Part shown: in pieces, positions 3,123 to 29,856 of the stretch
How the letters are laid out: every line of letters begins with the position of its first letter
Numbering within the stretch: the stretch's first letter is position 1
From: Chiloscyllium plagiosum
Lineage: Eukaryota
Reading direction: 5' to 3'
DNA: 39,763 nucleotides
Assembly: GCF_004010195.1 (NCBI RefSeq)
Contig: NC_057717.1
Coordinates: 107,124,062 to 107,163,824 of the forward strand
Translations under genes and position numbers: made by a program
The notes under the pieces: model-generated
The model's database searches: none
What the model was told of the DNA's origin: nothing
Seen by the model: the letters and a program-made list of their open reading frames with translations, nothing else

Positions 3123-3162
3123 TCAGATGTTTCGTCCCCTGTCTAGGTGACATCCTCAGTGC
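3123..3162 (-). ncRNA. Minimal hammerhead ribozyme motif, family C
   Basis: Minus strand reads gca CTGAGGA tGTCaCCTagacAGGgGAC GAAAC ATC tg: core boxes plus stem II, with an AUC triplet instead of GUC. Confidence 0.65.
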
Positions 3163-3792
3163 TTGGGAGCCTCCTGTGAAGCGCTTCTGTGATGTTTCCT
3201 CCGGCATTTATAGTGGTTTGTATCTGCCACTTCCGGTTGTCAGTTCCAGCTGTCCATTGCAGTGGTCGGTATATTGGGTCCAGGTCAATGTGCTTATTGA
3301 TTGAATCTGTGGATGAGTGCCATGCCTCTAAGAATTCCCTGGCTGTCCTCTGTGTGGCTTGTCCTATAATAGTAGTGTTGTCTCAGTCGAACTCATGTTG
3401 CTTGTCATCTGCGTGTGTGGCTACTAAGGATAGCTGGTCATGTCGTTTCGTGGGACAAATAGGAAGACAGCTAACGGTCTGCATCCATGAACACCAACTA
3501 GCCACGAAACGACATGACCAGCTATCCTTAGTAGCCACACACTCAGATGACAAGCAACATGAGTTCGACTGAGACAACACTACTATTATAGGACAAGCCA
3601 CACAGAGAACAGCCAGGGAATTCCTAGAGGCATGGCACTCATCCACAGATTCAATCAATAAGCACATCGACCTGGACCCAATATACCGGCCACTGCAGCG
3701 GACAACTGGAACTGACAACCGGAAGCGGCAGATACAAACCACTATAAATGCCGGAGGAAACATCACAGAAGCACTTCACAGGAGGCTCCCAA

Positions 3793-3826
3793 GCACTGAG
3801 GATGTCACCTAGACAGGGGACGAAAC
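3793..3826 (+). ncRNA. Minimal hammerhead ribozyme motif, family C (cut by gap)
   Basis: gca CTGAGGA tGTCaCCTagacAGGgGAC GAAAC, then Ns. Confidence 0.65.
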
Positions 3827-9720: not shown

Positions 9721-10384
9721 TCTTATATTCTGTTCTTGGAGTGGGAGTAGTATTCTCAATGCCTTTACAGAGTGATGGGCACTGCAGGGGTTTCAGTGTT
9801 TTCTATCTCCTTCCAACTCCATTTTGATTTAACCCCCTCCCCCTGCTCCCTACCTCTGCCTTACCTTTGATGGTTTGTACTGCTCTTAATAGGCTTTATG
9901 TGCAATGTATTCAATTGGAAACACATTGACTGACTGGTTGTGATGATTAATCAAAAAGAAAAAGTGCACAGTGATTTGGTGATGAAAAGAAATTCAGTTG
10001 TGTGTGATAGGCACCTCTGGATAAATTAAAAAAGTATGGATCTGTAGAACAGTTTGTCCCAGAGTGGGATTAACCTGAGTAGTGGCTCTATTTTGGTGTT
10101 CAACAATAACTGATGTTCCTTTCCTGAGTTATTAACTGTCTCAACTCATTTGCTGTTGAAGCTCTCATCCACAGCACTGTTAGCTTTTAACTCGAGTATT
10201 CCATTGCATCTCTGGATGCTCTCCCACATTGTACACTCCATAAACTTGAAGTTATTCAAAACTCTGCTGCCTATCTTTGAAATCTGTGAGATTTATCTCC
10301 CTACCACCTGATGCACATTAGCTCCTAATCAAACAACACCATGATTGAGGTCATAGATTCATTCGCTGAGCTGATGTGTTTTTC

Positions 10385-10425
10385 TGCAGACGTTTCGTCA
10401 CCTCGCTAGGTGCATCGTCAATGCA
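10385..10425 (-). ncRNA. Minimal hammerhead-like motif, family D (UUGACGA variant)
   Basis: Minus strand: TGCA TTGACGA tg CACCTagcgAGGTG ac GAAAC GTC TGCA, with stem I TGCA/TGCA. Confidence 0.55.
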
Positions 10426-10766
10426 CTTCCTGTGAAGTGTTGGTGGTCTGTCCTACCTGGTATTTATGTGTCGCTGTTTTCTGGTAATTCTGTTCTGTAT
10501 CTAAGTGGTTTGTATATGGGGTCCAGTTCAATATGTTTATTGATTGAGTCCCAGTTGAATTTATGTTCTATATTGTAACCATCCTAACACAGGCAAAACA
10601 GACACACACAAGAGAATTCCTTGAAGCCTGGCACTCCAATCAGAACTCAATCAATAAACATGGAACTGGACCCCATGTATAAACCACTCAGATACAGAAC
10701 AGGATCACTAGAAAACAGCGACACATAAATACCTGGTGGGACAGATCACAAACGCTTCACTGGAGG

Positions 10767-10808
10767 CGCATTGACGAGGCCACCTCGTGAGTTGACGAAA
10801 CGTCTGCA
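10767..10808 (+). ncRNA. Minimal hammerhead-like motif, family D, decayed stem II
   Basis: cGCA TTGACGA ggccacctcgtgagttgac GAAAC GTC TGCa. Confidence 0.5.
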
Positions 10809-13800
10809 GAAAAACACATCAACTCGGCAAACAAATCTACGACCTCACCCACAACCCGAGTTACAATTCTTTTCAAAACCTCTAACATCATGATTTTAAA
10901 ATTCTCATTCTTGTTTTTGAAGACCTTCACAGCCTAGCTCTCTCCTTCCTCCAACCTCCAACCTCTTCATGTATCTGACAATTCTGAAAACACTTCAGAA
11001 AAGCTTTTGGTCATCTGACCTAATATTTTCTGATGTGACTTAGAGTCATTCTTCAATTGATGCTCCTGAAAACTGCCTTGGGACATTCCATTATGTAAAA
11101 TGTGCTACATAAATATAAGTTGTTGTTATACTTAATGTCTAGACAAGTCTTGAGTGGAGAAGCACTTTTGTAAATTTGTTCATGGAATATGATATTACTG
11201 GTCAACACTTAGTGCCAAATGCGAATTGACCTGGAGAAGGTGATGGCCAGGCACAATGACCTGGATGTTCTTGTTATGGACAATGGCTTAGATAATTCTG
11301 TGGATCTCACTGGAAAGTGTAGGTGTTAGGTAAGGACAGGAACAGGATCAGCAACAACACCTCTCTCCGTACAGCCAGACAGAATTTTATTCCTTCACAA
11401 TTTAGGTGAATGGAGCCATACCTCAGCAGACTTCAGGAAAGGAGGAAGAAGCATCAGTAGCAGGCTAAAACAATGAGAGGGTTAATGCTTCAGAGTCTGT
11501 GCCTTATTCCCCAAGCGAGTGCTCAATGCTGGAACACCATGACACAAAATCCTGTCTCTGATTAATTTCCTTGCTCTCGACATCTCTTCTGATTTATGGA
11601 AGCTGGGGCTGCTCAATAATAACTTTGATTCGTTTTTATTTTGCAATTTGTCAAAATGCATCACACAGATCTAAAAACAGCCTGAAACTAATCCCTGAAC
11701 AAGAGGCACTTTCGAAATTTCCTCAGCTGCAATTACCCGGAAACCTTTTAACTTATTTCCACAAAACTTGACAACGCAACTTGGATCAGACAGAATAACA
11801 GGACCACAATATCAAGTTCAATTCTTCCTGGTCCAGTTTGCATTCGAAAAGTTACTCCTTAACAAACTCCCTTGTTATCTGACAGAAACATTAAATCAAA
11901 ATCATGGAGATGTTGGAGAAGGTGTGCAGGGAGTCAGAAAACACCCAAAGACTGAGTTCACCAGAGACCCACTTGAGAACCAGATGTGTAAAGTGGGTGT
12001 TGTGGATAGTGCAGGTCAAATAGAAACCGAGAGACCATAAGGAAAAGGAGCAGGTGTTGACCATATGGGTGCTTAAGCCTACTCTGTCATTCAGTATAAT
12101 TGTGGCAGATCCCCTATCTCAACTCCACTTTCTCGCAAACTCTCCAAAATCCTCAATTCCCTGAGAAACAAAATATCTGTCTGTCCTCAGCCTTCAATGT
12201 ATTCAACAATGGAACATGAACAATCCTCTGGAAAAAGAGAAACCAAACACCTGCAACTCTTTGAGGGAAGTTATTTATCCTTATCTTAGTCTTAGTTCAA
12301 TTGTCCCTTATCCTGAGACTATTTCTTGTGTTCCAGCCATCCCAGCTAATGAAAACAATCTGTGTCTAACCTGTCAATCTCTCAGTATTTGGCTTGTCAA
12401 TCTTAGTGTTTACTCTGACGATTTCTCAGTGTCTTCTCTGTCTCTCAGTATCTACCCCATCAACTTCTGTGCCTACCCTGTCAGTCTCCCACGATACTCC
12501 CTGTCAGTCTCCGTGTTTACCTGTCCGTCTCTTAGTTTCTGTAAGACCATAAGGTATAGACCAGAAGACCCGAAGTGCCTGTTCCTGTGCTGTAAGGTTC
12601 TTTGTCCTTTGTATCTCGAAGCAGAATTAGGTGATCTGGCCCATCAAGCCTGCTCTGCCAATCCACTTCTGGCTGATATGTTTTTCAACCCCATTCTCCT
12701 GCCTTCTCCTCATAATGTTGAATCCCTTACTAATTAAGAATCTATCTATCTCTGCCTTAAATACACTCAATGACTTGGCCTCCACAGCCCTCCACATGAA
12801 CATCCATACAGTCACTATTCTTTGGCTGAGTAAATTCATTCTCATCTCAGTTCTAAAGGGTCATCCCTTCATTCTAAGGCTATGCCTTCTGGTCCGAGTC
12901 TCTCCCACGAGTGGAAATATCTTCTCCACATCCACTCTATCCAGGCCTCTCAATATTCTGTAAGTTTCAATGAGATTTTCCCCTCATCCTTCTAAACTCA
13001 ATCAAGTACAGACCCAGAGTCCTCAACTGCTCCTCATAAGACAGCCCTTCATTGCCAGGATCATTCTTGTGAATCCCCTCTAGATCCCCTCCAAGGCCAG
13101 CACATCCTTCCTTAGATACAGGCTCATAGTATTCCATATGTGAACTGACCAAAGCATTATTCAGCCTCAGCAGTAGATCTCTGCTCTTGTACTCTCACTC
13201 CCTCAAAATGAATGTTAACATTGCATTTACCTTCCTGACTGCCAATTGAACCTGCATGTTAACATTAAAAAGAATCCTGAACTCGGACTCCCAAATCACT
13301 TTCCAAAGCCTTTCCCCATTTAGAAAATAGTCTACACCCCTCTTCTTCCTGCCAAAGTGCATAACCTCTCACTTTATCACATTGTATTCCATCTGCACTT
13401 CTTTGCCCACTCTCCTGGCCTGTCCAGGTCCTTCTGCCGCCTCCTTGCCTCCTCAACACTACTTGTCCTTTAACCTATTTTTGTTAAGCTTAACAACAAT
13501 GCCTTCACTTCCCTTATTGAGGTCATTAATGCATAACATGAATAGCTGTGGTCCCAACATGGACCCTTGCGGAACTCCACTAGTCACCAGCTGTCATCCT
13601 GAAAAGACCCCTTTATCGCCACTCTCTGTCTTCTGCCAATCAGCCAATCCTCCATCCATACCAGTAGCTTGCCTCTAACACCATGGGCTCTTATTGTATT
13701 TAGCAGCCTCTTGTGCAGCACCTTGTCAAAGGCCTTCAGGAAATCCAACTAGATCATATCCACTGGATCTCCTTTGTCAAACTCACATGTTACTTCCTCA

Positions 13801-13872
13801 AAGACTTTTAACAAATTTGTCAGGGATGACCTCCCCTTGACAAAGCCATGCTGACTCAGTCCTATTTTACCA

Positions 13873-14213
13873 TGATTTGGAGATGCCGGTGTTGGACTGG
13901 GGTGTACAAGGTTAAAAATCACACAACACCAGGTTATAGTCCAACAGGTTTAATTGGGAGCACACTAGCTTTCGGAGCGACACTCCTTCATCAGGTGATA
14001 GTGGAGGACACAATTCTAAGGCACAGAATTTATAGCAAAAATTTACAGTGTGATGTAACTGAAATTATACATTGAAAAATACCTTGATTGTCTGTTGAGT
14101 CTTCATCTGTTCGAATACCATGATAGTTTCACTTCTTTCATGTGTAAATCACAAAACCCTTCTTTTTTAAAAGATGCATTCTCAGGTTAGCTGTAACAAT
14201 GAGTGTTAGCTAG
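13873..14213 (-). mobile_element. Penelope-like terminal repeat (family A)
   Basis: tgatttggagatgccggtgttggactgggg... shared with 16036-16330, 16417-16633 and 18779-18998. Confidence 0.8.
13963..13997 (-). ncRNA. Minimal hammerhead ribozyme, family A, intact core
   Basis: Minus strand: CAC CTGATGA a GGAGtgtcgCTCC GAAA GC TA GTG. Stem I CAC/GTG, palindromic AGCT stem III, CUA triplet. Confidence 0.75.
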
Positions 14214-15349: not shown

Positions 15350-16035
15350 CATAGAACAAACAGAGAACAGTACAGCCCAGAACAGGCCCTTCCACCCTCC
15401 ATATCTGTGCTGACCATAAAGTTATTTTAAACGAATCCCATCTGATTGAAAACAGTCTCTACCTCGTTATTCTCTGTCTGTCTCAATGCCTCTTACACTT
15501 CACTATCATATCTGCTTCTACTGCCTTCCCCGACAGTGCATTCCACTTCCTTCTGTATAAAATAAAAGCCCTCACATTGTTTTTAAACTTTCCTCCTGTC
15601 ACCTTAAACTTATGTCCCAAAGATTTGACATTGCCACCCTGGGGAAGAGATTCCAATTATCCAACCTATCCATGTCTCTCAATTTTATAAATTTCTTTCA
15701 GGTCATCCCCTCAGCCTCCCACGCTCTAGCGAAAGCAATCCAAGTTTGCCCAGCCTCCCATTAGAACTAATACAGTCCAATCCAAGCAACATCCTGCTAA
15801 ATCTTTTCTGCACCCTCTCCAAAGTCTCCGCAACCTTCCTATAGTACGACAATCAGAACTGTGCATAGTACTCCAAACTCAACAACTTTTATACTCAGTG
15901 TCTTAAACAGTACAGACAAGCATGCCTAATGCCTTCTTTACCACTTTATCCACTTGTGTGCCACTTTCAGGGAGCTATGGACTTTGGCCCCAAGATCCTT
16001 CTGTATATCACTGCTCCATTTATTGTATACTTTCT
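15350..16035 (-). mobile_element. CR1 LINE 3' part; continues at about 19000-19340 after a Penelope insertion
   Basis: Tail catagaac..agaacagtacagc; collinear CR1 RT sequence resumes at 19000 (ISKFADD in ORF 19042..19305). Confidence 0.8.
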
Positions 16036-16470
16036 TGATTTGGAGATGCTGGTGTTGGACTGGGGAGGACAAAGTTAAAAATTACACAACACCAGGTTAT
16101 AGTCCAACAGGATTATTTGGAAGCTCCAGTTTTTGGAGCCCTGCTTCTTCATCAGGTGGTTGTGGAGAATAAGATTGTAAGACACAGAATTTATAGCAAA
16201 AGGTTAACAGAGTGATGTAACTGAAATGATATGTTGAAAAAGACCTGGATTGTTTGTCAAGTCTCTCATCTTTTAGAATGAACATGTTGGTTTCACTTCT
16301 TTCATATGTAAATTGCAGAACGTTTTTAAAGTGAACTTTAACTTTGGTGTCATGTCAGCCCAGATAATGCACTGAAGGTGTGAGGTGCCCTGTGTGAGAC
16401 TGTGTCATAATGTTCAAAGTTAAAAATCACACAACACCAGGTTACAGTCCAACAGGTTTAATTGGAAGCA

Positions 16471-16505
16471 CACTAGTTTTCGGAGCAACGCTCCTTCATC
16501 AGGTG
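16471..16505 (-). ncRNA. Minimal hammerhead ribozyme, family A
   Basis: Minus strand: CAC CTGATGA a GGAGCgttGCTCC GAAA AC TA GTG. Confidence 0.65.
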
Positions 16506-16507
16506 AT

Positions 16508-16543
16508 CACCTGATGAAAGGACCGTTGCTCCGAAAGCTAGTG
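16508..16543 (+). ncRNA. Minimal hammerhead ribozyme, family A
   Basis: CAC CTGATGA aa GGAcCgttGcTCC GAAA GC TA GTG. Confidence 0.65.
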
Positions 16544-17060
16544 TGCTTCCAATTAAACCTGTTGGACTGTAACCTGGTGTTGTGTGATTTTTAACTTTGT
16601 ACACCCCAGTCCAACACCGGCATCTCCAAATCATAATGTTCAGGCTGATTCTAATCTAAAAGATGGATTTACAGAACCTTACATGGATTTATGCAGTTTT
16701 TGAGCAAAATAAAATTTAATTCTGCAAACATAGATTCACCCCACAAACTTGTGTGTTTGTGTGTGTGTGTGTGTGTTGATGAGTGTCTGTATGTGTGTAA
16801 GTATGAGTGTAAAGGGGTATAAGTCTGTAAGAGGGTGTGTGGGAGTGTATGTGTGAGCATATGGGAGACAGTTTGTGCATGAGAGACGGTCTGCATAAGT
16901 GTCTGTGTCTGTAGGAGTATGTGTGCGTAGGAGTGCCTGTGTGTGTGTGTGCGTGCAGTACAGTGGGGTCACCTGTAGTGTGACATGAACCCAAGGTCCT
17001 GGTTGAGGCCATCCCCATGGGTACCGAACTTAGCTATCAGCCTCTGCTTGGCCACTTTGC

Positions 17061-17270
17061 ATTCCCCATTGTACTCTATGCTACTTTCTCCCCACCCCCA
17101 CCCTCTTCTCACTTATCTCTCCACGCTCCAGGCTCACTGCCTTTATTTTTGATGAAGGGCTTTTGCCCGAAACGTCGATTTCGAACCCTTGGATGCTGCC
17201 TGAACTGCTGTGCTCTTCCAGCACCACTAATCCAGAATCTGGTTTCCAGCATCTGCAGTCATTGTTTTTA
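17061..17270 (+). mobile_element. Solo family-B Penelope-like terminal repeat with hammerhead-like motif (17149-17176) and 9-bp TSD
   Basis: TTGATGA aGGGCttttGCCC GAAAC GTC; TSD ccactttgc at 17052-17060 and 17271-17279. Confidence 0.8.
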
Positions 17271-18030
17271 CCACTTTGCGTTGTTGCCTGACCCAAAGTC
17301 TGCCTTGGAGGATGGTCACCCGAAAGTCCGAGGTCGAATTTCCTGGACAGCTGAAGTGTTCTCCGACTGGGAGGAAGCACTCCAGTCTGTTGATTGTTGT
17401 GCGGTGCGCATTCATCTGTTGCCGTAGCCTCTGCTCTGTCTCGCCAATGTGCTATACCTCGGGGCATCCTTGCCTCCAGCTTTTGAGATAGACAATGTTG
17501 GCTGAGTCGCATGAGTACCTGCCATGTACACGGTGGGAGGTGTCCTCACGCGTAATGGTGGTATCCGTGTTGACACTCTGAGACATCTTGTAACGTCTAC
17601 TGTGACACGGTTGTATGGTGTTGTCCTGAGATTCGTAGCAAACTGCCCGGCTTTTAGGACAATACCACGTGTCATGTTAGATGTTGCAAGATGTGTCAGA
17701 TTGTTGACACGGTTACCACAAGTAAGCATGGGGACACCTCCCACCATCTACATGGCAGGTACTCATGTGACTCAGCCAACGTTGTCTATCTCATACATTG
17801 CAGGCAAGGATGCCCTGAGGTATGGTACATTGGTGAGACCAAGGAGAAGCTACCTCAACGGATGAATGGACACCTCACAACAATCAACAGACAGAAGTGC
17901 TCCCTCCTAGTCAGAGAACACTTCAGCGGTCTGGGAAATTCGACCTCGGACCTTCGGGTGACTGTCCTCCAAGGCGGACTTTGGGACAGGCAACAACGCA
18001 AAGTGACCGAGCAGAAGCTGATAGCCAAGT

Positions 18031-18776
18031 ACCAAAATTGGAGGTGTAGTGGACAGCGAAGAGGGTTACCTCAGATTACAACAGGATCTGGACCAGATGG
18101 GCCAGTGGGCTGAGAAGTGGCAGATGGAGTTTAATTCAGATAAATGCGAGGTGCTGCATTTTGGGAAAGCAAATATGAGCAGGACTTATACACTTAATAG
18201 TAAGGTCCTAGGGAGTGTTGCTGAANNNNNNNNNNNNNNNNNNNNNNNNNNNNNNNNNNNNNNNNNNNNNNNNNNNNNNNNNNNNNNNNNNNNNNNNNNN
18301 NNNNNNNNNNNNNNNNNNNNNNNNNNNNNNNNNNNNNNNNNNNNNNNNNNNNNNNNNNNNNNNNNNNNNNNNNNNNNNNNNNNNNNNNNNNNNNNNNNNN
18401 NNNNNNNNNNNNNNNNNNNNNNNNNNNNNNNNNNNNNNNNNNNNNNNNNNNNNNNNNNNNNNNNNNNNNNNNNNNNNNNNNNNNNNNNNNNNNNNNNNNN
18501 NNNNNNNNNNNNNNNNNNNNNNNNNNNNNNNNNNNNNNNNNNNNNNNNNNNNNNNNNNNNNNNNNNNNNNNNNNNNNNNNNNNNNNNNNNNNNNNNNNNN
18601 NNNNNNNNNNNNNNNNNNNNNNNNNGATGGATATATGAATAGGAAGGGTTTGGAGGGATATGGGCCGGGTGCTGGCAGGTGGGACTAGATTGGGTTGGGA
18701 TATCTGGTCAGCATGGATGGGTTGGACCGAAGGGTCTGTTTCCATGCTGTACATCTCTATGACTCTATGACTCTAT
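18031..18776 (+). mobile_element. 5'-truncated CR1 LINE spanning a gap, with (GACTCTAT)n tail
   Basis: Translation DSEEGYLRLQQDLDQMGQWAEKWQMEFNSDKCEVLHFG; tail ctctatgactctatgactctat. Confidence 0.9.
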
Positions 18777-18913
18777 AACTGAAACCAACATGTTCATTCT
18801 AAAAGATGAGAGACTTAACAAACAATCCAGGTCTTTTTCAATATAATATTTCAGTTACATCACACTGTAAACTTTTGCTATAAATTCTGTCTTACGATCT
18901 TATATTCCACAAC

Positions 18914-18948
18914 CACCTGATGAAGGAGCAGCGCTCCAAAAGCTAGTG
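18914..18948 (+). ncRNA. Hammerhead motif, family A, core GAAA mutated to AAAA
   Basis: CAC CTGATGA a GGAGCagcGCTCC aAAA GC TA GTG. Confidence 0.55.
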
Positions 18949-18999
18949 CTTCCAAATAAACCTGTTGGACTATAACCTGGGGCTGTGTGATTTGTAACT

Positions 19000-19340
19000 G
19001 TAAACATTCCTGTTGCCTTCTATCTCCCTAAACGTATCACCTCACACTTTATGTGTAATCCCCCCCATCTGCCATTTCTTCGTCCACCCTTCCAACTGAT
19101 CTATATCCAGCTGCATCCTTCGATAACCTTCCTCACTATCTACAGCTCCACTAATTTTCTTGTCGTCTGCAAACTTACTAATCAGATCAGCTACGTTTTC
19201 ATCCAAATCATTTATATATATATCATAGACAACATAGGTCCGAGCACTGATCTTTGCTGAACACCACTGGTCACAGACCACCAGCCAGAAAGCACCCCTC
19301 CACAATTACCTTCTGTCTTCTAAGGCCAAGGCAATTTTGA
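19000..19340 (-). mobile_element. CR1 LINE RT fragment
   Basis: ORF 19042..19305 IYINDLDENVADLISKFADD. Confidence 0.85.
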
Positions 19341-22630: not shown

Positions 22631-22822
22631 CACTTGGCCCATATCTCTCTAAACCCTTCCTACTCATATACTCATCTGGTTGCTTTTTAAATGTTGTAAT
22701 TATACCAGGCTTTACCACTTCCTCTAGGAGAAAGTGAGGACTGCAGATGCTGGAGATCAGAACTGAAAATATGTTGCTGGAAAAGCGCAGCAGGTCAGGC
22801 AGCATCCAAGGAGCAGGAGAAA

Positions 22823-22855
22823 TCGACGTTTTGGGCATGAGCCCTTCTTCAGGAA
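22823..22855 (-). ncRNA. Hammerhead motif, family B, GAAA mutated to AAAA
   Basis: Minus strand: ttc CTGAAGA aGGGCtcatGCCC aAAAC GTC ga. Confidence 0.5.
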
Positions 22856-24214
22856 TGAGGAAAGTGTGCCAAGCAGGCTAAGATAAAAGGTAGGGAGGAG
22901 GGACTTGGAGGAGGGGCATTGGAAATGTGATAGGTGGAAGGAGGTTAAGGTGAGGGTGATAGGCCGGAGTGGGGTGGGGGCGGAGAGATCAGGAAGAAGA
23001 TTGCAGTTTAGGAATGTGGTGCTGAGTTCAAGGGTTGGGACTGAGACAAGGTGGGGGAGGGGAAATGAGGAAACTGGAGAAATCTGAGTTCATCCCTTGT
23101 GGTTGGAGGGTTCCTAGCCGGAAGATGAGGCGCCCTTCCTCCAGCCGTCATGTTGCTATGGTCTGGCGATGGAGGAGTCCAAGGACCTGCATGTCCTTGG
23201 TGGAGTGGGAGGGGGAGTTGAAGTGTTGAGCCACGGGGTGGTTGGGTTGGTTGGTCCGGGTGTCCCAGAGGTGTTCTCTGAAACATTCNNNNNNNNNNNN
23301 NNNNNNNNNNNNNNNNNNNNNNNNNNNNNNNNNNNNNNNNNNNNNNNNNNNNNNNNNNNNNNNNNNNNNNNNNNNNNNNNNNNNNNNNNNNNNNNNNNNN
23401 NNNNNNNNNNNNNNNNNNNNNNNNNNNNNNNNNNNNNNNNNNNNNNNNNNNNNNNNNNNNNNNNNNNNNNNNNNNNNNNNNNNNNNNNNNNNNNNNNNNN
23501 NNNNNNNNNNNNNNNNNNNNNNNNNNNNNNNNNNNNNNNNNNNNNNNNNNNNNNNNNNNNNNNNNNNNNNNNNNNNNNNNNNNNNNNNNNNNNNNNNNNN
23601 NNNNNNNNNNNNNNNNNNNNNNNNNNNNNNNNNNNNNNNNNNNNNNNNNNNNNNNNNNNNNNNNNNNNNNNNNNNNNNNNNNNNNNNNNNNNNNNNNNNN
23701 NNNNNNNNNNNNNNNNNNNNNNNNNNNNNNNNNNNNNNNNNNNNNNNNNNNNNNNNNNNNNNNNNNNNNNNNNNNNNNNNNNNNNNNNNNNNNNNNNNNN
23801 NNNNNNNNNNNNNNNNNNNNNNNNNNNNNNNNNNNNNNNNNNNNNNNNNNNNNNNNNNNNNNNNNNNNNNNNNNNNNNNNNNNNNNNNNNNNNNNNNNNN
23901 NNNNNNNNNNNNNNNNNNNNNNNNNNNNNNNNNNNNNNNNNNNNNNNNNNNNNNNNNNNNNNNNNNNNNNNNNNNNNNNNNNNNNNNNNNNNNNNNNNNN
24001 NNNNTCCCCTCCCCCCACCTTGTCTCAGTCAAATCCCTCGAACTCAGCACTGCCTTCCTAACCTGCAATCTTCTTCTTGATCTCTCCGCCCCCACCCCCA
24101 CTCCGGCCTATCACCCTCACCTTAACCTCCTTCCACCTATTGTATTTCCAACGCTCCTCCCCCAAGTCTCTCCTCCCTACCTTTTATCTTAGCCTGCTTG
24201 GCACACTCTCCTCA

Positions 24215-24248
24215 TTCCTGAAGAAGGGCTTATGCCTGAAACGTCGAT
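24215..24248 (+). ncRNA. Minimal hammerhead ribozyme, family B, intact core
   Basis: ttc CTGAAGA aGGGCttatGCCT GAAAC GTC ga; predicted cleavage after C24245. Confidence 0.7.
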
Positions 24249-24384
24249 TCTTCTGCTCCCTGGATGCTGCCTGACCTGCTGCGCTTTTCCAGCAACACAT
24301 TTTCAGCTTTACCACTTCCTCTGACAGCTCATTCCATACATGCACCACCCTCTGCATGGAAAATGTTGCCCATTCGGTCCCTTT

Positions 24385-24752
24385 TAAATCTTATAGAGGT
24401 ATATAAAATTGTGAGGGGCATAAATAAGGTGAATAGCAAAGGTCTGTTCCCAGTGATAGGGGAATTCAAAACTTGTGCGCATAGTGTAAGGTGAGAGGGG
24501 AAAGATTTAAAAGGGATCTGAGGGGCAACATTTTCATGCAGAAGGCGGTGCATATATGGAATGAGCTGCCAGAGGAGGTGGTAGATGCAGGTACAATGAC
24601 AACATTTAAAAGACATTTGGACAGGAACATAGATAGCAAAGGGTTAGACGGATATGGGCCAAATGAAGACTAATAGTTCATTTTGGGAAAACTGGTTGAC
24701 TTGGATGAGTTGGAACAAAGGTTCTGTTTCTGTGCTGCATGACTACGACTCT
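24385..24752 (+). mobile_element. CR1 3' fragment
   Basis: LIEVYKIVRGINKV...RGERFKRDLRGNIF...WNELPEEVV translation and tail. Confidence 0.85.
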
Positions 24753-26613
24753 AAGGACATTAGTAAATCAGTTGGGTTTTTACAACAATTGATAATAATG
24801 TCATGGTCACCATCATTGAAACAACTTTCAATTCCAGATTTATGAAGTGACTTTAAATTCTATGGCGGCCATGGTGGTACTTGAATCCAGAGCATTAGCC
24901 TGGGTCTCTGGATTATGAGTTCAGTGACAAGCTTAAAAGGCTTGTCTTTTGAATTGAATGGAAATGTGGAAATGGCAACTTTTATTTTCTCAGTTTATTG
25001 AGTGTTTTCTTTACTTAACATTTCCGAGGTAAAAAGCTTGAGTCATTTCATCATATCAACAAACATAATCATGCAGCAGTAAAGTGTCTCTGCGAATTTG
25101 GAGAGAGGTTAGCTCTTGTGAACTGGAGAGTGAAGGTCAGAGAGACACTGTCTCCATAAATTACGTGAATATTGAAGGGGGAAGACTGCATCTGGGGCTG
25201 AGGTCGAAAGCACTGTGGTAAAGAGTGAATTGAATCCCAGGAAGAAGAATATTGCTGAGGGTGGCTTTAGGGAAGTAGTGACATTTAAACCACCTTCAGT
25301 TCTTTTAGATTAATAATAAATAGTTCACTATTTTTAAATCAAAGTGTCTCTTACAATGCATACAAACATGAATAGAGAGAAGTAGTATTTGGAAGGATGA
25401 ACAGTTTAAAATGTCCCATGAGATATTATCACAAGGAAGTTTCATTGTTATTTAAAGATTTGGGCAAAGAATCAGAAAGTTTATATAAACTCTGTAGAAA
25501 TGCTGCTATGTTGTTATACTTTTAATGTGTTAAATGTCTTTGAGATCAATTTTTTCTTTAATAATTCTACAAACCAGATATAGCAGAATAACAAATTGGT
25601 GCCCAATTCTCTTACTCCAACTCAATAACTTAAAAACTCTTAATAACTTACAAACTCCTAATGCTGAGTTTTCCAAAGTGTGGGTTGGGACCCCAAGTGG
25701 AGTTGCAGGTTGAAATGTTGGTAGTAGTGGCAGCCGCAGAGCTCTGACCAAGTTATAACATCTATACTCATGCATTGGCATTTCTCACTTGAGTGTCATA
25801 ATAATTTTCAAGTCCTGAAATGGTGTCACAGAGGGAAAATGTTTAGGAAGCACTCTCTTAATCAAAAATGTATACATTAAGGTGTTTTAAATGCTGTTCT
25901 GTAGTTTTTTTTTACTGTAATCCCAAGGTCCCTTTGTTCGCTGCTTCCTCAACATCAACTGTCAACTTGATCGATCTCTCAGATTTTGAGCCTTTCGGCT
26001 AAATATTAGGCTTTAGGCTACTTCCTGACCTGTCACCTTGGCCTCCCCACTGCTAGCCACCTCCCTCTTGACTCTCTGCCTCCCTATCAGTTGTCCCCCT
26101 CTCTCCCTCCCAACTCACTGTTGACCCATGTCACATCCCCTCCATTCCCACTCATCTTGCTATTTCCCTCCTGAGTCAGTTCCTTCATGTTTGTTGCTTT
26201 CCCTCCTGACCCTTGACACCATTTCTCCCTGTCCTGAGCAGTCATTCTGAGCAGTGACAAGGCCAGGCAGAGGGAGGAAATGAATGAGGAAGTAAATGGA
26301 ATGGCGAGCAGGAAGGTTGGGGAGAAAAGTGACGCATGTAAGGAATTTCGTTTGTTAATCCCATCTGATTAATCATGGCAGGCTTGAATCTCATTTATAA
26401 ATTTCCTGTTGTGGGACGGTCAACCAGTCCTTTTACGAAAATGGCAGGAAGTCTTAGTTAACCAAAGTAACACAGCAACAGTAATTAAATGTATGACATT
26501 TGATGCACTGTTACATAGTCACACAGCATGGAGGGAATGCTGGTCGAGATCAACAGGAACACAAGGTTTACTTACAGGAGTGACTGCTGGTGTTGAAAGG
26601 AAATAATATTTAC

Positions 26614-27879
26614 ATAGAACATAGAACAATAGAACATAGAACAATACAGCACAGAACAGGCCCTTCGGCCCACAATGTTGTGCCGAACATTTGTCCTAGC
26701 TTAAGCACCCATCCATGTACCTATCCAATTGCCGCTTAAAGGTCACCAAAGATTCTGACTCTACCACTCCCACAGGCAGCGCATTCCATGCCCCACCACT
26801 CTCTGGGTAAAGAACCCACCCCTAACATCTCCCCNNNNNNNNNNNNNNNNNNNNNNNNNNNNNNNNNNNNNNNNNNNNNNNNNNNNNNNNNNNNNNNNNN
26901 NNNNNNNNNNNNNNNNNNNNNNNNNNNNNNNNNNNNNNNNNNNNNNNNNNNNNNNNNNNNNNNNNNNNNNNNNNNNNNNNNNNNNNNNNNNNNNNNNNNN
27001 NNNNNNNNNNNNNNNNNNNNNNNNNNNNNNNNNNNNNNNNNNNNNNNNNNNNNNNNNNNNNNNNNNNNNNNNNNNNNNNNNNNNNNNNNNNNNNNNNNNN
27101 NNNNNNNNNNNNNNNNNNNNNNNNNNNNNNNNNNNNNNNNNNNNNNNNNNNNNNNNNNNNNNNNNNNNNNNNNNNNNNNNNNNNNNNNNNNNNNNNNNNN
27201 NNNNNNNNNNNNNNNNNNNNNNNNNNNNNNNNNNNNNNNNNNNNNNNNNNNNNNNNNNNNNNNNNNNNNNNNNNNNNNNNNNNNNNNNNNNNNNNNNNNN
27301 NNNNNNNNNNNNNNNNNNNNNNNNNNNNNNNNNNNNNNNNNNNNNNNNNNNNNNNNNNNNNNNNNNNNNNNNNNNNNNNNNNNNNNNNNNNNNNNNNNNN
27401 NNNNNNNNNNNNNNNNNNNNNNNNNNNNNNNNNNNNNNNNNNNNNNNNNNNNNNNNNNNNNNNNNNNNNNNNNNNNNNNNNNNNNNNNNNNNNNNNNNNN
27501 NNNNNNNNNNNNNNNNNNNNNNNNNNNNNNNNNNNNNNNNNNNNNNNNNNNNNNNNNNNNNNNNNNNNNNNNNNNNNNNNNNNNNNNNNNNNNNNNNNNN
27601 NNNNNNNNNNNNNNNNNNNNNNNNNNGTCACTTCCTCAAAGAATTCAATAAGACTTGTAAGGCAAGAACTACCCTTCACAAATCTGTGCTGGCTGTCCCT
27701 AATCAAGCAGTGTCTTTCCAGGTACTCATAAATCCTATCCCTCAGTACCCTTTCCATTACTTTGCCTACCACCGAAGTAAGACTAACTGGCCTGTAATTC
27801 CCGGGGTTATCCCTATTCCCTTTTTTGAACAGGGGCACAACATTCGCCACTCTCCAGTCCCCTGGTACCACCCCCGTTG
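26614..27879 (-). mobile_element. 5'-truncated CR1 LINE spanning a gap; tandem catagaa tail at left
   Basis: Translation TGVVPGDWRVANVVPLFKKGNRDNPGNYRPVSLTSVVGK; tail catagaacatagaacaatagaacatagaac. Confidence 0.9.
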
Positions 27880-28019
27880 AGCCTAAAGGCTCAAAATCTG
27901 AGAGATCGATCAAGTTGACAGTTGATGTTGAGGAAGCAGCGAACAAAGGGACCTTGGGGTTACAGTAAAAAAAACTATAGAACAGCATTTAAAACACCTT
28001 AATGTATACATTTTTGATT
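27880..28019 (-). repeat. Inverted duplicate of 25860-26000
   Basis: Reverse-complement match with 3 substitutions and 1 homopolymer indel by my manual count. Confidence 0.93.
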
Positions 28020-29856
28020 CAATCAGTGAGAATGTGAGCGCGAATGAAGCCTTCAGCTGATATGTACAGGTTCCTTTGACAGGAAATCTCTCTGATATGA
28101 TACCTTCAATACGCAAGAATACTCAATATAGTAAAATAGACCTAAATCCTACTCCAATTGAGTGAAAAGGATAGGTCTATCATCTGGGATTGGAAGGGCA
28201 ACACAATGGAAGAACTATGACAGAGCTGTCAGCATTAGACAAGTTCCATGGACATGATTTTTAGCAGTGAGCTATATAACTGAGAGACGTTCACCATTGT
28301 GGTTGCACAGTCACAAAAGCTACAAGTATTAACGTATTAACTTCTCTCCTTTTTCTGTTTATGTCTCTTTACTCTCTTCACAGTTTATCTAGGAATTCTA
28401 TTCCTGCAGTCACTGGTGCTGAAAGACTTTTTTAACACAGCAATTCAAGAAAACTCTCTTAAAAAGATAGAGGAATGATTATCATTCCCAGCGTTGTCCT
28501 GTGCTCATGGCTAACAGAAATGCAGAGAAAAAGGTTTTTAAGTAATAATGAGCATGTAACTAATTTTTTTAAAAATGCCTGATGGATTGTCACATTTGAA
28601 GCCTCAGTTTAGATGAATGAACACAGCTATGGTGAAGTGCTACATATAAATGTATAAGTAGGTTTTGTTAATTCTTTTTTGTTATTTCTTTCAAAATTGT
28701 CGTGTTTAGTTCTGCAGATGCACTCTGTGTAGGTTGTCAGTGTGGTCTATTAATTGACCATTTTTTGGAGATGTTCTTGCTTGATATTGAGGATGCTGAG
28801 TTTAGATATTTTCCTCTTGGCATTAACCCAAATCTAGGTTGTTGCACCTCCTACTGTTGGTGTGAGAAGGGAGTGTGACTTCACTTGAAGTGACAGCCAC
28901 AACATTCACCCTGGGTGACTATACAAGTTGTGTCTCACAGTGTTGATTTGGACCATAGCTCACTTCACAGTATAATTCTGTTCTGGGAACCTTTTATAAA
29001 AATTGCAATATTAAGTGCTTAAGAATAATCTGCAGCCATCTCACATACTGTTTGAACACGATGTAGAAGTGTGCCAGAATTATCAAATAATTATATGGCA
29101 CCTTCCACCTTCTCAAGAAATCCCAAAGCATTCAACACCATCTGGTTACTTTGATAGTGTTGTCACATTGTAATTTAGGGAACTGAGTAAGCAATTTGCA
29201 AACAGCAAGATGGTGAAAACAGCAGTGAGATGAATAAGCAGTTAATCTGACAGTTAAGGTGGAGTTTCCCATGACCACACATCGTACCCTCAGATCATCT
29301 ATGAACATATTGAACGTTAAATCACAATTTTTTTTTAAAAGAAGATAGAAATGAAAAAAGAGACTGCAAATGTAAATTCAGAGCAAGGTAATTTAATAAT
29401 GGTCTGAATGGCCTGAACTTTCTCAGCCTTGAGGAAGTTCAGGATTGTCACACTTAATTGGTGTTAAGGAAACTTTAAAGATAAAGACATCGAAAGGTGA
29501 AAAGCTCTGCAAACTGAACTGTAGTCCCCTGTGAGTTATCTGAGATTCTGAACGTGGTGGGGAAGAAACACAACAGTATGGGTGAGAGCCCTAATTGTAT
29601 TTGCCCCGTTTGAGAATAGACAAGAAGTTGGATTAAAAGCAAATTTCATATATGGTCTATGTCTGCTAGTGGGTGAAGGTATGTGTTTTGAGGGTCACAA
29701 CTGAGAAACCCTAGTCATTCCTGCGTTGCAGGTAAACAGATGGGAAGTCTCTCTCTCTCTGCTAAAGCCAGAAAGTGAAGCCACAGTCGAAAAGAAACAG
29801 ATCTTTCAGCTAACCAGCAAAGCTAAGCATCTCAAAATCAACTGCTCATCTATCAA

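Follow-up and report, generated by a model that had tools for sequence, protein, structure and literature searches.

The DNA analysed here, referred to as the window, is a stretch of 39,763 nucleotides of Chiloscyllium plagiosum contig NC_057717.1, and all positions are those of the window. It contains an insert of 214 bp enclosed by a 12-mer direct repeat that is identical at 16405-16416 and 16631-16642 and cannot be extended. The insert lies within an older head-to-head insertion of its own Penelope-like element (PLE) family, here called family A (Table 1). The original prediction for this locus was of a 12-bp target site duplication (TSD) around 214 bp, with inverted arms of about 90 bp and an axis at gtgatcac, and each of these was found where it had been placed. 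The axis falls between 16506 and 16507, where the spacer-less GTGATCAC spans 16503-16510, and the arms (16417-16506 and 16507-16597, 90 and 91 nt) are two substitutions and one extra A apart. The insert had been described as a palindrome over its entire 214 bp; this holds for the arms, but 16598-16634 is a one-sided tail of 37 nt outside the palindrome. The chance of a 12-mer repeat within 10 nt of both insert ends is about 3e-5, and the predicted hairpin fold has an energy of -156 kcal/mol (z -26), which 0 of 200 shuffles reach.

Table 1. Features of the insert, its host element and its closest relative in the window.
Feature	Position	Strand	Remarks
Close relative with tail and intact hammerhead; template proxy	13872..14157	-	94.5% to right arm
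Host: older head-to-head family-A PLE insertion	16036..18999	.	3' end of RT-thumb / Cys-linker / GIY-YIG gene in arms
Left TSD copy	16405..16416	+	First 4 nt are the family tail end; last 6 nt pair with the inner-end template, 5/6
Left arm: inverted tail-less family-A pseudo-LTR end, C3-5 to C3+86	16417..16506	-	Sequence comparison; unique-flank loose ends at 16416-16419
ATTAAA poly(A) signal, left arm	16457..16462	-	Family poly(A) 11-15 nt downstream (16446, 16442), then GU-rich stretch
Minimal type I hammerhead, left arm	16471..16505	-	Stem III tetramer AACU, not palindromic AGCU; private change at 16477
Axis GTGA|TCAC	16503-16510	.	Arms have 2-nt self-complementary AT in common, 16506-16507
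Right arm: sense pseudo-LTR end, starting at C3-5	16507..16597	+	Sequence comparison
Minimal type I hammerhead, right arm	16508..16543	+	AGCU kept; predicted cut between 16540 and 16541
ATTAAA poly(A) signal, right arm	16552..16557	+	Motif search
37-nt PLE tail, right arm only; last 4 nt overlap TSD	16598..16634	+	Sequence comparison; loose-end peak at 16634
Right TSD copy	16631..16642	+	12/12 match to left copy

Matches to the arm lie at four other places in the window: the relative at 13872 (94.5%), the two arms of the host (~85%) and the insert's own left arm. That the insert would sit inside a larger element of its own family had also been predicted, and the host bears this out by carrying the same end. 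The host's left arm is on the minus strand with its tail at 16036, its right arm is tail-less, and a 28-nt spacer is found near 17628-17655. Its TSD is decayed, with 11/14 matches over 14 bp (16024-16037 and 18999-19012) against 6 at the next best offset. For the 13872 relative, a 9-mer repeat at 13868/14116 was considered as a TSD and discarded, as the element continues beyond the repeat.

Upstream of the family end, the host retains the end of an ORF (VVYLI-C...WYIGET) in which a GIY-YIG-type motif was read by eye and a Cys-rich linker motif is present. A Pfam search of this ORF end returned no meaningful domain (one match, E 0.1) and did not detect GIY-YIG. Homologues of the ORF end numbered 15 among 29 candidate longer proteins, the named ones all being from sharks and the best 73% identical; RVT_1 was found in one homologue, and Pfam gave nothing meaningful in 2/3 homologues. 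The terminal repeat is linked to an ORF with reverse transcriptase (RT) and GIY-YIG endonuclease for the family, and the insert itself carries no ORF. An ORF start within the hammerhead is excluded by an in-frame stop codon. A Cys-rich linker between RT and endonuclease is given for Neptune and Nematis in the available text of Craig (2021, PMC8557442), and from its sequence the family's linker appears to be of this type. The host's endonuclease gene end is split by a non-inverted family-B insertion with a 9-bp TSD (17039-17279), so that, as with the insert, one PLE is nested in another. In the host's right arm, a LINE-like fragment with an N gap (~18030-18776) stands where about 800 bp of mirror sequence is missing, and it has RT words that we take to be of CR1 type. 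Proteins P0010-P0013 have the endonuclease end fused to cytochrome P450 or 7TM domains; these fusions are probably gene-model artefacts, and possibly exonised PLE sequence.

Hammerhead motifs and family transcripts

Each strand of the insert has one minimal hammerhead ribozyme (HHR) core, with C3 at 16511 (+) and 16502 (-), the cores being 9 nt apart; stem I is 3 bp long and begins 3 nt ahead of C3, which places it 1 nt from the axis. The two back-to-back hammerheads originally proposed are thus present as one motif per strand at the axis, but neither ribozyme is intact, with private lesions in both. In the right arm, a private G>C at 16523 and one extra A leave stem II with 3 bp instead of 5, and the family G at 16523 makes up ~98-99% of contig depth. 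At the left arm's private change, 16477, the family base accounts for 91-93% of contig depth and for 941/962 first-mate-plus RNA reads, and judging by its letters the left hammerhead is without the AGCU palindrome that dimer formation would need. The 13872 relative has everything by which a minimal HHR is defined, namely the core CUGANGA/GAAA/UH, stems I and II and a palindromic stem III tetramer. MFE cofolding did not return an active hammerhead dimer, even for this intact copy.

A search of Rfam at E<=1 gave four matches and no hammerhead family, and the hammerhead call therefore rests on the descriptor test; two of these matches on the insert are to generic miRNA hairpins (40 and 31 bits, against gathering cut-offs of 81 and 89). 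Fold prediction pairs the ribozyme with the antisense arm in transcripts of either strand at a mean probability of 0.94, and it would be buried because the antisense arm is transcribed first on either strand. The RNA run described below lists no pile of RNA ends at the predicted hammerhead cut or elsewhere, 30-nt products being of a size that would escape such data, and the available text of Frangieh (2024, PMC11167929) gives no RNA ends at the cut site either. The insert is best seen as inert.

In the RNA run (X21), poly(T) loose ends were found before 16446 (406 reads) and before 16442 (294 reads), where no run of A is templated. The family's transcripts receive their poly(A) at C3+57/+61, 11-15 nt past ATTAAA/AATAAA. 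Each mini palindrome carries the family poly(A) signal on both strands. This poly(A) site is upstream of both ends that would serve for priming; therefore the template for priming cannot be a polyadenylated 3' end, and would have to be the 5' repeat of a tandem transcript or else read-through RNA.

Upstream of the hammerhead, the 13872 relative has a TATAAAT at C3-40 and an initiator-like motif with its A at C3-8. A TATAAAT 30-32 nt before the initiator-like A is found in 3/3 family-A arms with upstream sequence, which represent two independent insertions, and the arrangement occurs by chance at 54 of 74,122 window anchors. In families C and D, a TATA-like box precedes the core by 48-53 nt, and a TATA box was found in 0/4 of the family-B copies examined, one of which has only 10 nt upstream. 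The TATA, initiator and poly(A) consensus motifs used here are those that we assume to be standard, and the initiator pattern is a loose one. Both insert arms are cut off from the TATA/initiator-like motifs. The RNA run lists no pile of RNA 5' ends at C3-8, as a 3'-type library that is little informative on 5' ends. In ordinary element sequence 814 RNA reads run upstream past the axis position, and RNA depth at 16517 is 15. A 3'-type library should yield such reads from the 3' repeat of long transcripts, but they give the predicted start no support.

Related insertions and sequencing runs

With the insert and its host counted, the window holds six head-to-head insertions from four hammerhead-bearing families, and these have six different centres. 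The insert's centre is at C3-5 without a spacer, while spacers measure 28 nt in the host, 48 nt in the family-C insertion and 95 nt in that of family D. A family-B mini insertion (2775-2975) has an 11-bp TSD, an asymmetric centre at ~C3+35 / C3+12 and a 13-bp tandem duplication in its right arm, and a long head-to-head insertion of the same family (22709-24322) is centred on an N gap, with a TSD of 17 bp. The head-to-head insertions of families C and D are at 3129-3826 and 10336-10895; the arms of the former are 325 nt long and 97% alike, and the latter has 205-nt arms and a near-TSD of 10/11. TSDs of the related window insertions measure 9, 11, 12 and 17 bp. Families A and B have alike end geometry (C3+86 and ~C3+123) although their sequences are unrelated. 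At the inner end the family-B mini insertion matches the template at 4-5/6 nt, and the long family-B insertion at about 1 nt. No copy in the window other than the insert ends near C3-5 to -8. Two further inverted repeats have no hammerhead core by pattern search: one with LINE-like arms of 83-100 nt (24310-24665), and one with arms of ~150 nt around an N gap (25851-28028).

Four of 24 listed sequencing runs were aligned to 16250-16750 at 88% likeness. Three of these are DNA contig sets under two species labels (70,140, 53,171 and 65,028 records aligned), and the fourth is a raw single-cell poly(A) RNA run with the same species label (2,436 reads aligned, ~2% of the run sampled), whose reads are assigned to the family and not to the insert's locus. 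Loose ends at the right unique flank lie at 16631-16636 with a peak at 16634 (1219, 644 and 1176 contigs in the three DNA runs), and those at the left unique flank at 16416-16419 (123 and 133 in run X1, 91 in run X6). Both ends of the insert fall on these family-wide pile-ups and therefore are the family's standard ends. A joint 16403->16635 is present in 4/4 runs (5, 2 and 6 contigs, and 2 reads) and is the empty target in other host copies; the empty site is absent from the host's own right arm.

Of 664 joints, the 15 that are listed comprise four of the empty-site type and eleven that cross the centre, and 11/11 of the centre-crossing ones differ from one another. Depth at 16517 served as a proxy for the centre, as any contig through the axis should cover this position. 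It was 4713, 889 and 3527, against 728,038, 873,606 and 547,747 on the left-arm core, or 0.1-0.65%; this is soft evidence because assemblers and Illumina libraries under-report hairpins. Two contigs per DNA run align across 16517 in family spelling, at a depth of 19-88, equal to a few single-copy equivalents, so a handful of other loci may have the insert's centre. No axis-crossing piece is among the 24 listed of more than 191,000. We note that an identical junction makes no joint row, and that contigs break at hairpins and drop rare forms. In five of the eleven listed centre-crossing joints both ends lie within 10 nt of the predicted hammerhead cut, near 16466-16475 / 16540-16550. A second joint cluster near the cut (C3+28 to +39), such as cleaved RNA might leave, was not accepted, because alignments break there at a 2-nt indel of a sister subfamily.

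Mode of insertion and alternative explanations

We consider, with a probability of about 90%, that the insert arose de novo as a PLE insertion and follows the known pattern. Its source would be an autonomous Penelope-like retrotransposon with a Neptune-type linker, and the insert itself a one-off product, formed where it lies in a trans-less way and dead on arrival. Of the two options in the original prediction, the first, an extremely truncated PLE insertion with 5' inversion, is the one we retain, since an inverted end, a one-sided tail and a TSD are the published PLE pattern. Typical PLE insertions are described with 9-10 bp TSDs, a 31-bp tail and junction palindromes (Arkhipova 2013, PMC3846280), and a 34-37-bp repeat and inverted repeats of varying size are given by Schostak (2008, PMC2377424), in the portions of these sources available. 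The combination of inverted end, tail and TSD is also described by Craig (2021, PMC8557442). In the available text of Frangieh (2024, PMC11167929), a PLE protein cuts and extends both strands in vitro from two internal start sites that bracket the tail, and priming there proceeds without homology between target and RNA, contrary to the microhomology of the insert.

Target and template share microhomology at both insert ends, 4/4 nt at the tail end and 5/6 nt at the inner end, with a joint chance of about 2e-5, or about 5e-4 when 25 offsets are allowed. The insert's anatomy and family identity, its standard ends, the empty site, the microhomologies, the family's poly(A) site and the motif spacing were observed; both-strand priming, a transcription start and run-off we infer. 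The GIY-YIG endonuclease would nick both strands 12 nt apart, at a site that resembles the element's own end. The freed 3' ends would pair with element RNA at two internal start sites 37 nt apart and prime reverse transcription, the minus-strand target end pairing with the tail end and the plus-strand end with the inner site. A cDNA primed on the 5' repeat would run off within 90-130 nt, and both cDNAs would stop at C3-5, 3 nt short of the predicted start at C3-8, by run-off at the RNA 5' end. The cDNA 3' ends would then anneal through the self-complementary AT and be filled in to give a spacer-less head-to-head repeat. The end product would have a tail on one side only and a 12-bp TSD, with the hammerheads as passengers. 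We favour this full mechanism with modest confidence; against it count the letters common to both arms, which fold-back explains equally well, the inner end of the long family-B insertion with its match of only ~1 nt, the family-B copies without a TATA box, the RNA run in which no 5' ends are listed at C3-8, and the homology-free priming in vitro.

A wider reading, which we offer tentatively and regard as somewhat doubtful, is that the pseudo-LTR acts like a true LTR. It would have a TATA promoter, a start at C3-8, a redundant segment of ~65 nt that runs to the poly(A) site and includes the whole hammerhead, and then the two priming sites. Both-strand priming on the 5' copy would give run-off cDNAs of 90-130 nt as a PLE counterpart of strong-stop DNA; long insertions would jump to the 3' copy, and mini palindromes would arise where both cDNAs failed to jump. 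If true, one RNA would carry two hammerheads through terminal redundancy, which is what the dimer model calls for. Our literature search, which covered few subscription papers, brought up no text that states the run-off reading for PLEs; early papers of Arkhipova and Evgen'ev may contain the idea.

In place of a second priming event, the 3' end of a tail-primed cDNA may have folded back, or an antisense RNA primed itself, with the second arm joined by microhomology or endonuclease trimming; we consider such fold-back self-priming unlikely. Both arms carry two minority letters (~9% and 7-20% of depth) and therefore come from one source, which would follow automatically from fold-back, and the spacers of 28, 48 and 95 nt in other window insertions are such as a loop would leave. 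Hairpin loops have a minimum of 3 nt, however, and this counts against fold-back at the spacer-less centre of the insert; moreover, the arm finds no complement in the family's upstream sequence. In the available text of the respective sources, junction palindromes are read as self-priming (Arkhipova 2013, PMC3846280) and the tail is attributed to endonuclease resolution (Craig 2021, PMC8557442), whereas the tail-less end of the insert falls on a family-wide pile-up that corresponds to the second in vitro RT start site (Frangieh 2024, PMC11167929). Fold-back fits the spacer-less centre less well than run-off does.

The same chemistry could also have been ended by random 5' truncation, the stop at C3-5 being due to chance or to RT drop-off unrelated to the start. 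Centres and 5' ends in the window do vary widely (~+35/+12 in the family-B mini insertion, hundreds of nt upstream in others), and the listed joints spread from C3-5 to +103. However, both arms stop at the same nucleotide, and the TATA/initiator spacing points to a site 3 nt away. In four of the listed centre-crossing joints one arm reaches the edge at C3-3 to -5 with 0-10 extra letters, an edge at which the reference also ends. We therefore regard random truncation as improbable, more so than fold-back.

The second option of the original prediction was a non-autonomous hairpin mini-element, MITE- or retrozyme-like, which would be transcribed and re-inserted as a whole. The insert is compact, TSD-bounded and has standard ends; the two contigs per DNA run across 16517 may be other loci with the same centre, and hairpin under-reporting softens the low centre depth. 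Nevertheless, we find this option very unlikely, given the six differing centres in the window, the absence of an axis-crossing piece among those listed, the low centre depth relative to the core and the listed centre-crossing joints that all differ. The ribozymes are inverted instead of tandem, each is damaged and predicted to be ~94% sequestered, and with the promoter-like motifs cut off no promoter is left. TSD lengths also vary, unlike those made by a transposase. The run data argue against an amplified hairpin family, and leave room for a small one. The junction pattern in metagenome contigs and the family patterns in metagenome, viral and prokaryote collections gave 0 matches each, which says nothing on this point, as shark DNA is not expected there. 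It had further been proposed that a fixed centre would indicate a mobile family and random inversion points ordinary truncation. Centres do vary, but this dichotomy is too simple, as a centre need not be random: the insert's centre is 3 nt short of the predicted start, and the same centre may therefore be re-made repeatedly without being copied. An assembly or library artefact (a fold-back chimera) is hardly credible, for although assembly N gaps lie beside or inside other inverted repeats and no listed contig spans the locus, there are 3 differences between the arms, each of which has private changes, only one side bears a tail, and the two TSD copies match exactly. In addition, all four runs contain the empty site, with the flanks rejoined, from other copies of the host.

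Taken by itself, the insert is of little importance: dead Penelope stumps of its kind abound in this shark-like genome, and its pattern has already been described. A hint of something new on PLE copying comes only from where the centre lies, beside a likely transcription start. The steps after priming in PLE transposition are given as unresolved in the available portions of PMC8557442, PMC11167929 and PMC3846280. Where a minimal insertion has kept its TSD intact, both priming sites and the join can be read from it. If the arm ends mark the RNA start, thousands of stumps would serve as a genomic read-out of both-strand priming versus fold-back, and the origin of the inverted ends of PLEs would be explained. 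Stumps of this kind also spread perfect hairpins and two-way poly(A) signals across the genome.

Comparison with known systems

L1 twin priming uses two target ends as primers on element RNA, with microhomology joining the cDNAs; it gives an inversion without duplication and starts at poly(A). Retroviral minus-strand strong-stop DNA is a short cDNA that runs off the RNA 5' end; it is tRNA-primed and not integrated. The insert is proposed to work like both and is a member of neither class. MITEs have terminal inverted repeats at both ends and the fixed-length TSD of a DNA transposase. The ends of the insert are asymmetric, with a tail, and retroelement-derived, and TSDs among its relatives are 9-17 bp, and we do not place it among the MITEs.

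Similar to the non-LTR retrozymes of Li, Clavereau and Pollet (2026, 10.64898/2026.07.22.740005), the insert is non-coding, derived from a pseudo-LTR and equipped with a type I hammerhead. As far as the available text of that source defines them, these retrozymes consist of units in direct tandem, with two or more complete HHRs following each other on one strand, whereas the insert has one HHR per strand, in inverted arrangement. We do not count it as a retrozyme, which takes at least two direct-repeat units with an HHR on one strand. Dual minimal HHRs on opposite strands, 100-700 bp apart, are described by Cervera and De la Pena (2014, PMC4209133). The insert is like the metazoan PLE minimal HHRs of this source, in the portion available, in its type I core, a bulged base 5' of stem II, a G-C closing pair and the family's AGCU in place of stem III. 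It differs from them in that its cores, at 9 nt apart, are below the reported range, stem I has 3 bp, and both hammerheads are damaged.

With PAc, a Poseidon element of the anole (Frangieh 2024, PMC11167929, available text), the insert has in common two family-wide ends that lie 37 nt apart within an AC-rich stretch 3' of the hammerhead, and the apparent use of both target strands. Unlike PAc, its target ends show microhomology to the template, and its family has an ORF start outside the hammerhead and a linker of apparent Neptune/Nematis type. Compared with the EN+ PLE insertion pattern, as given in the available portions of PMC3846280, PMC2377424 and PMC8557442, the insert has no ORF or direct pseudo-LTR between its inverted ends, and its spacer-less centre lies just before stem I. 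It agrees with this pattern in its head-to-head ends, its 37-nt one-sided tail, its short TSD, the palindrome at its junction and its position as a PLE within a PLE.
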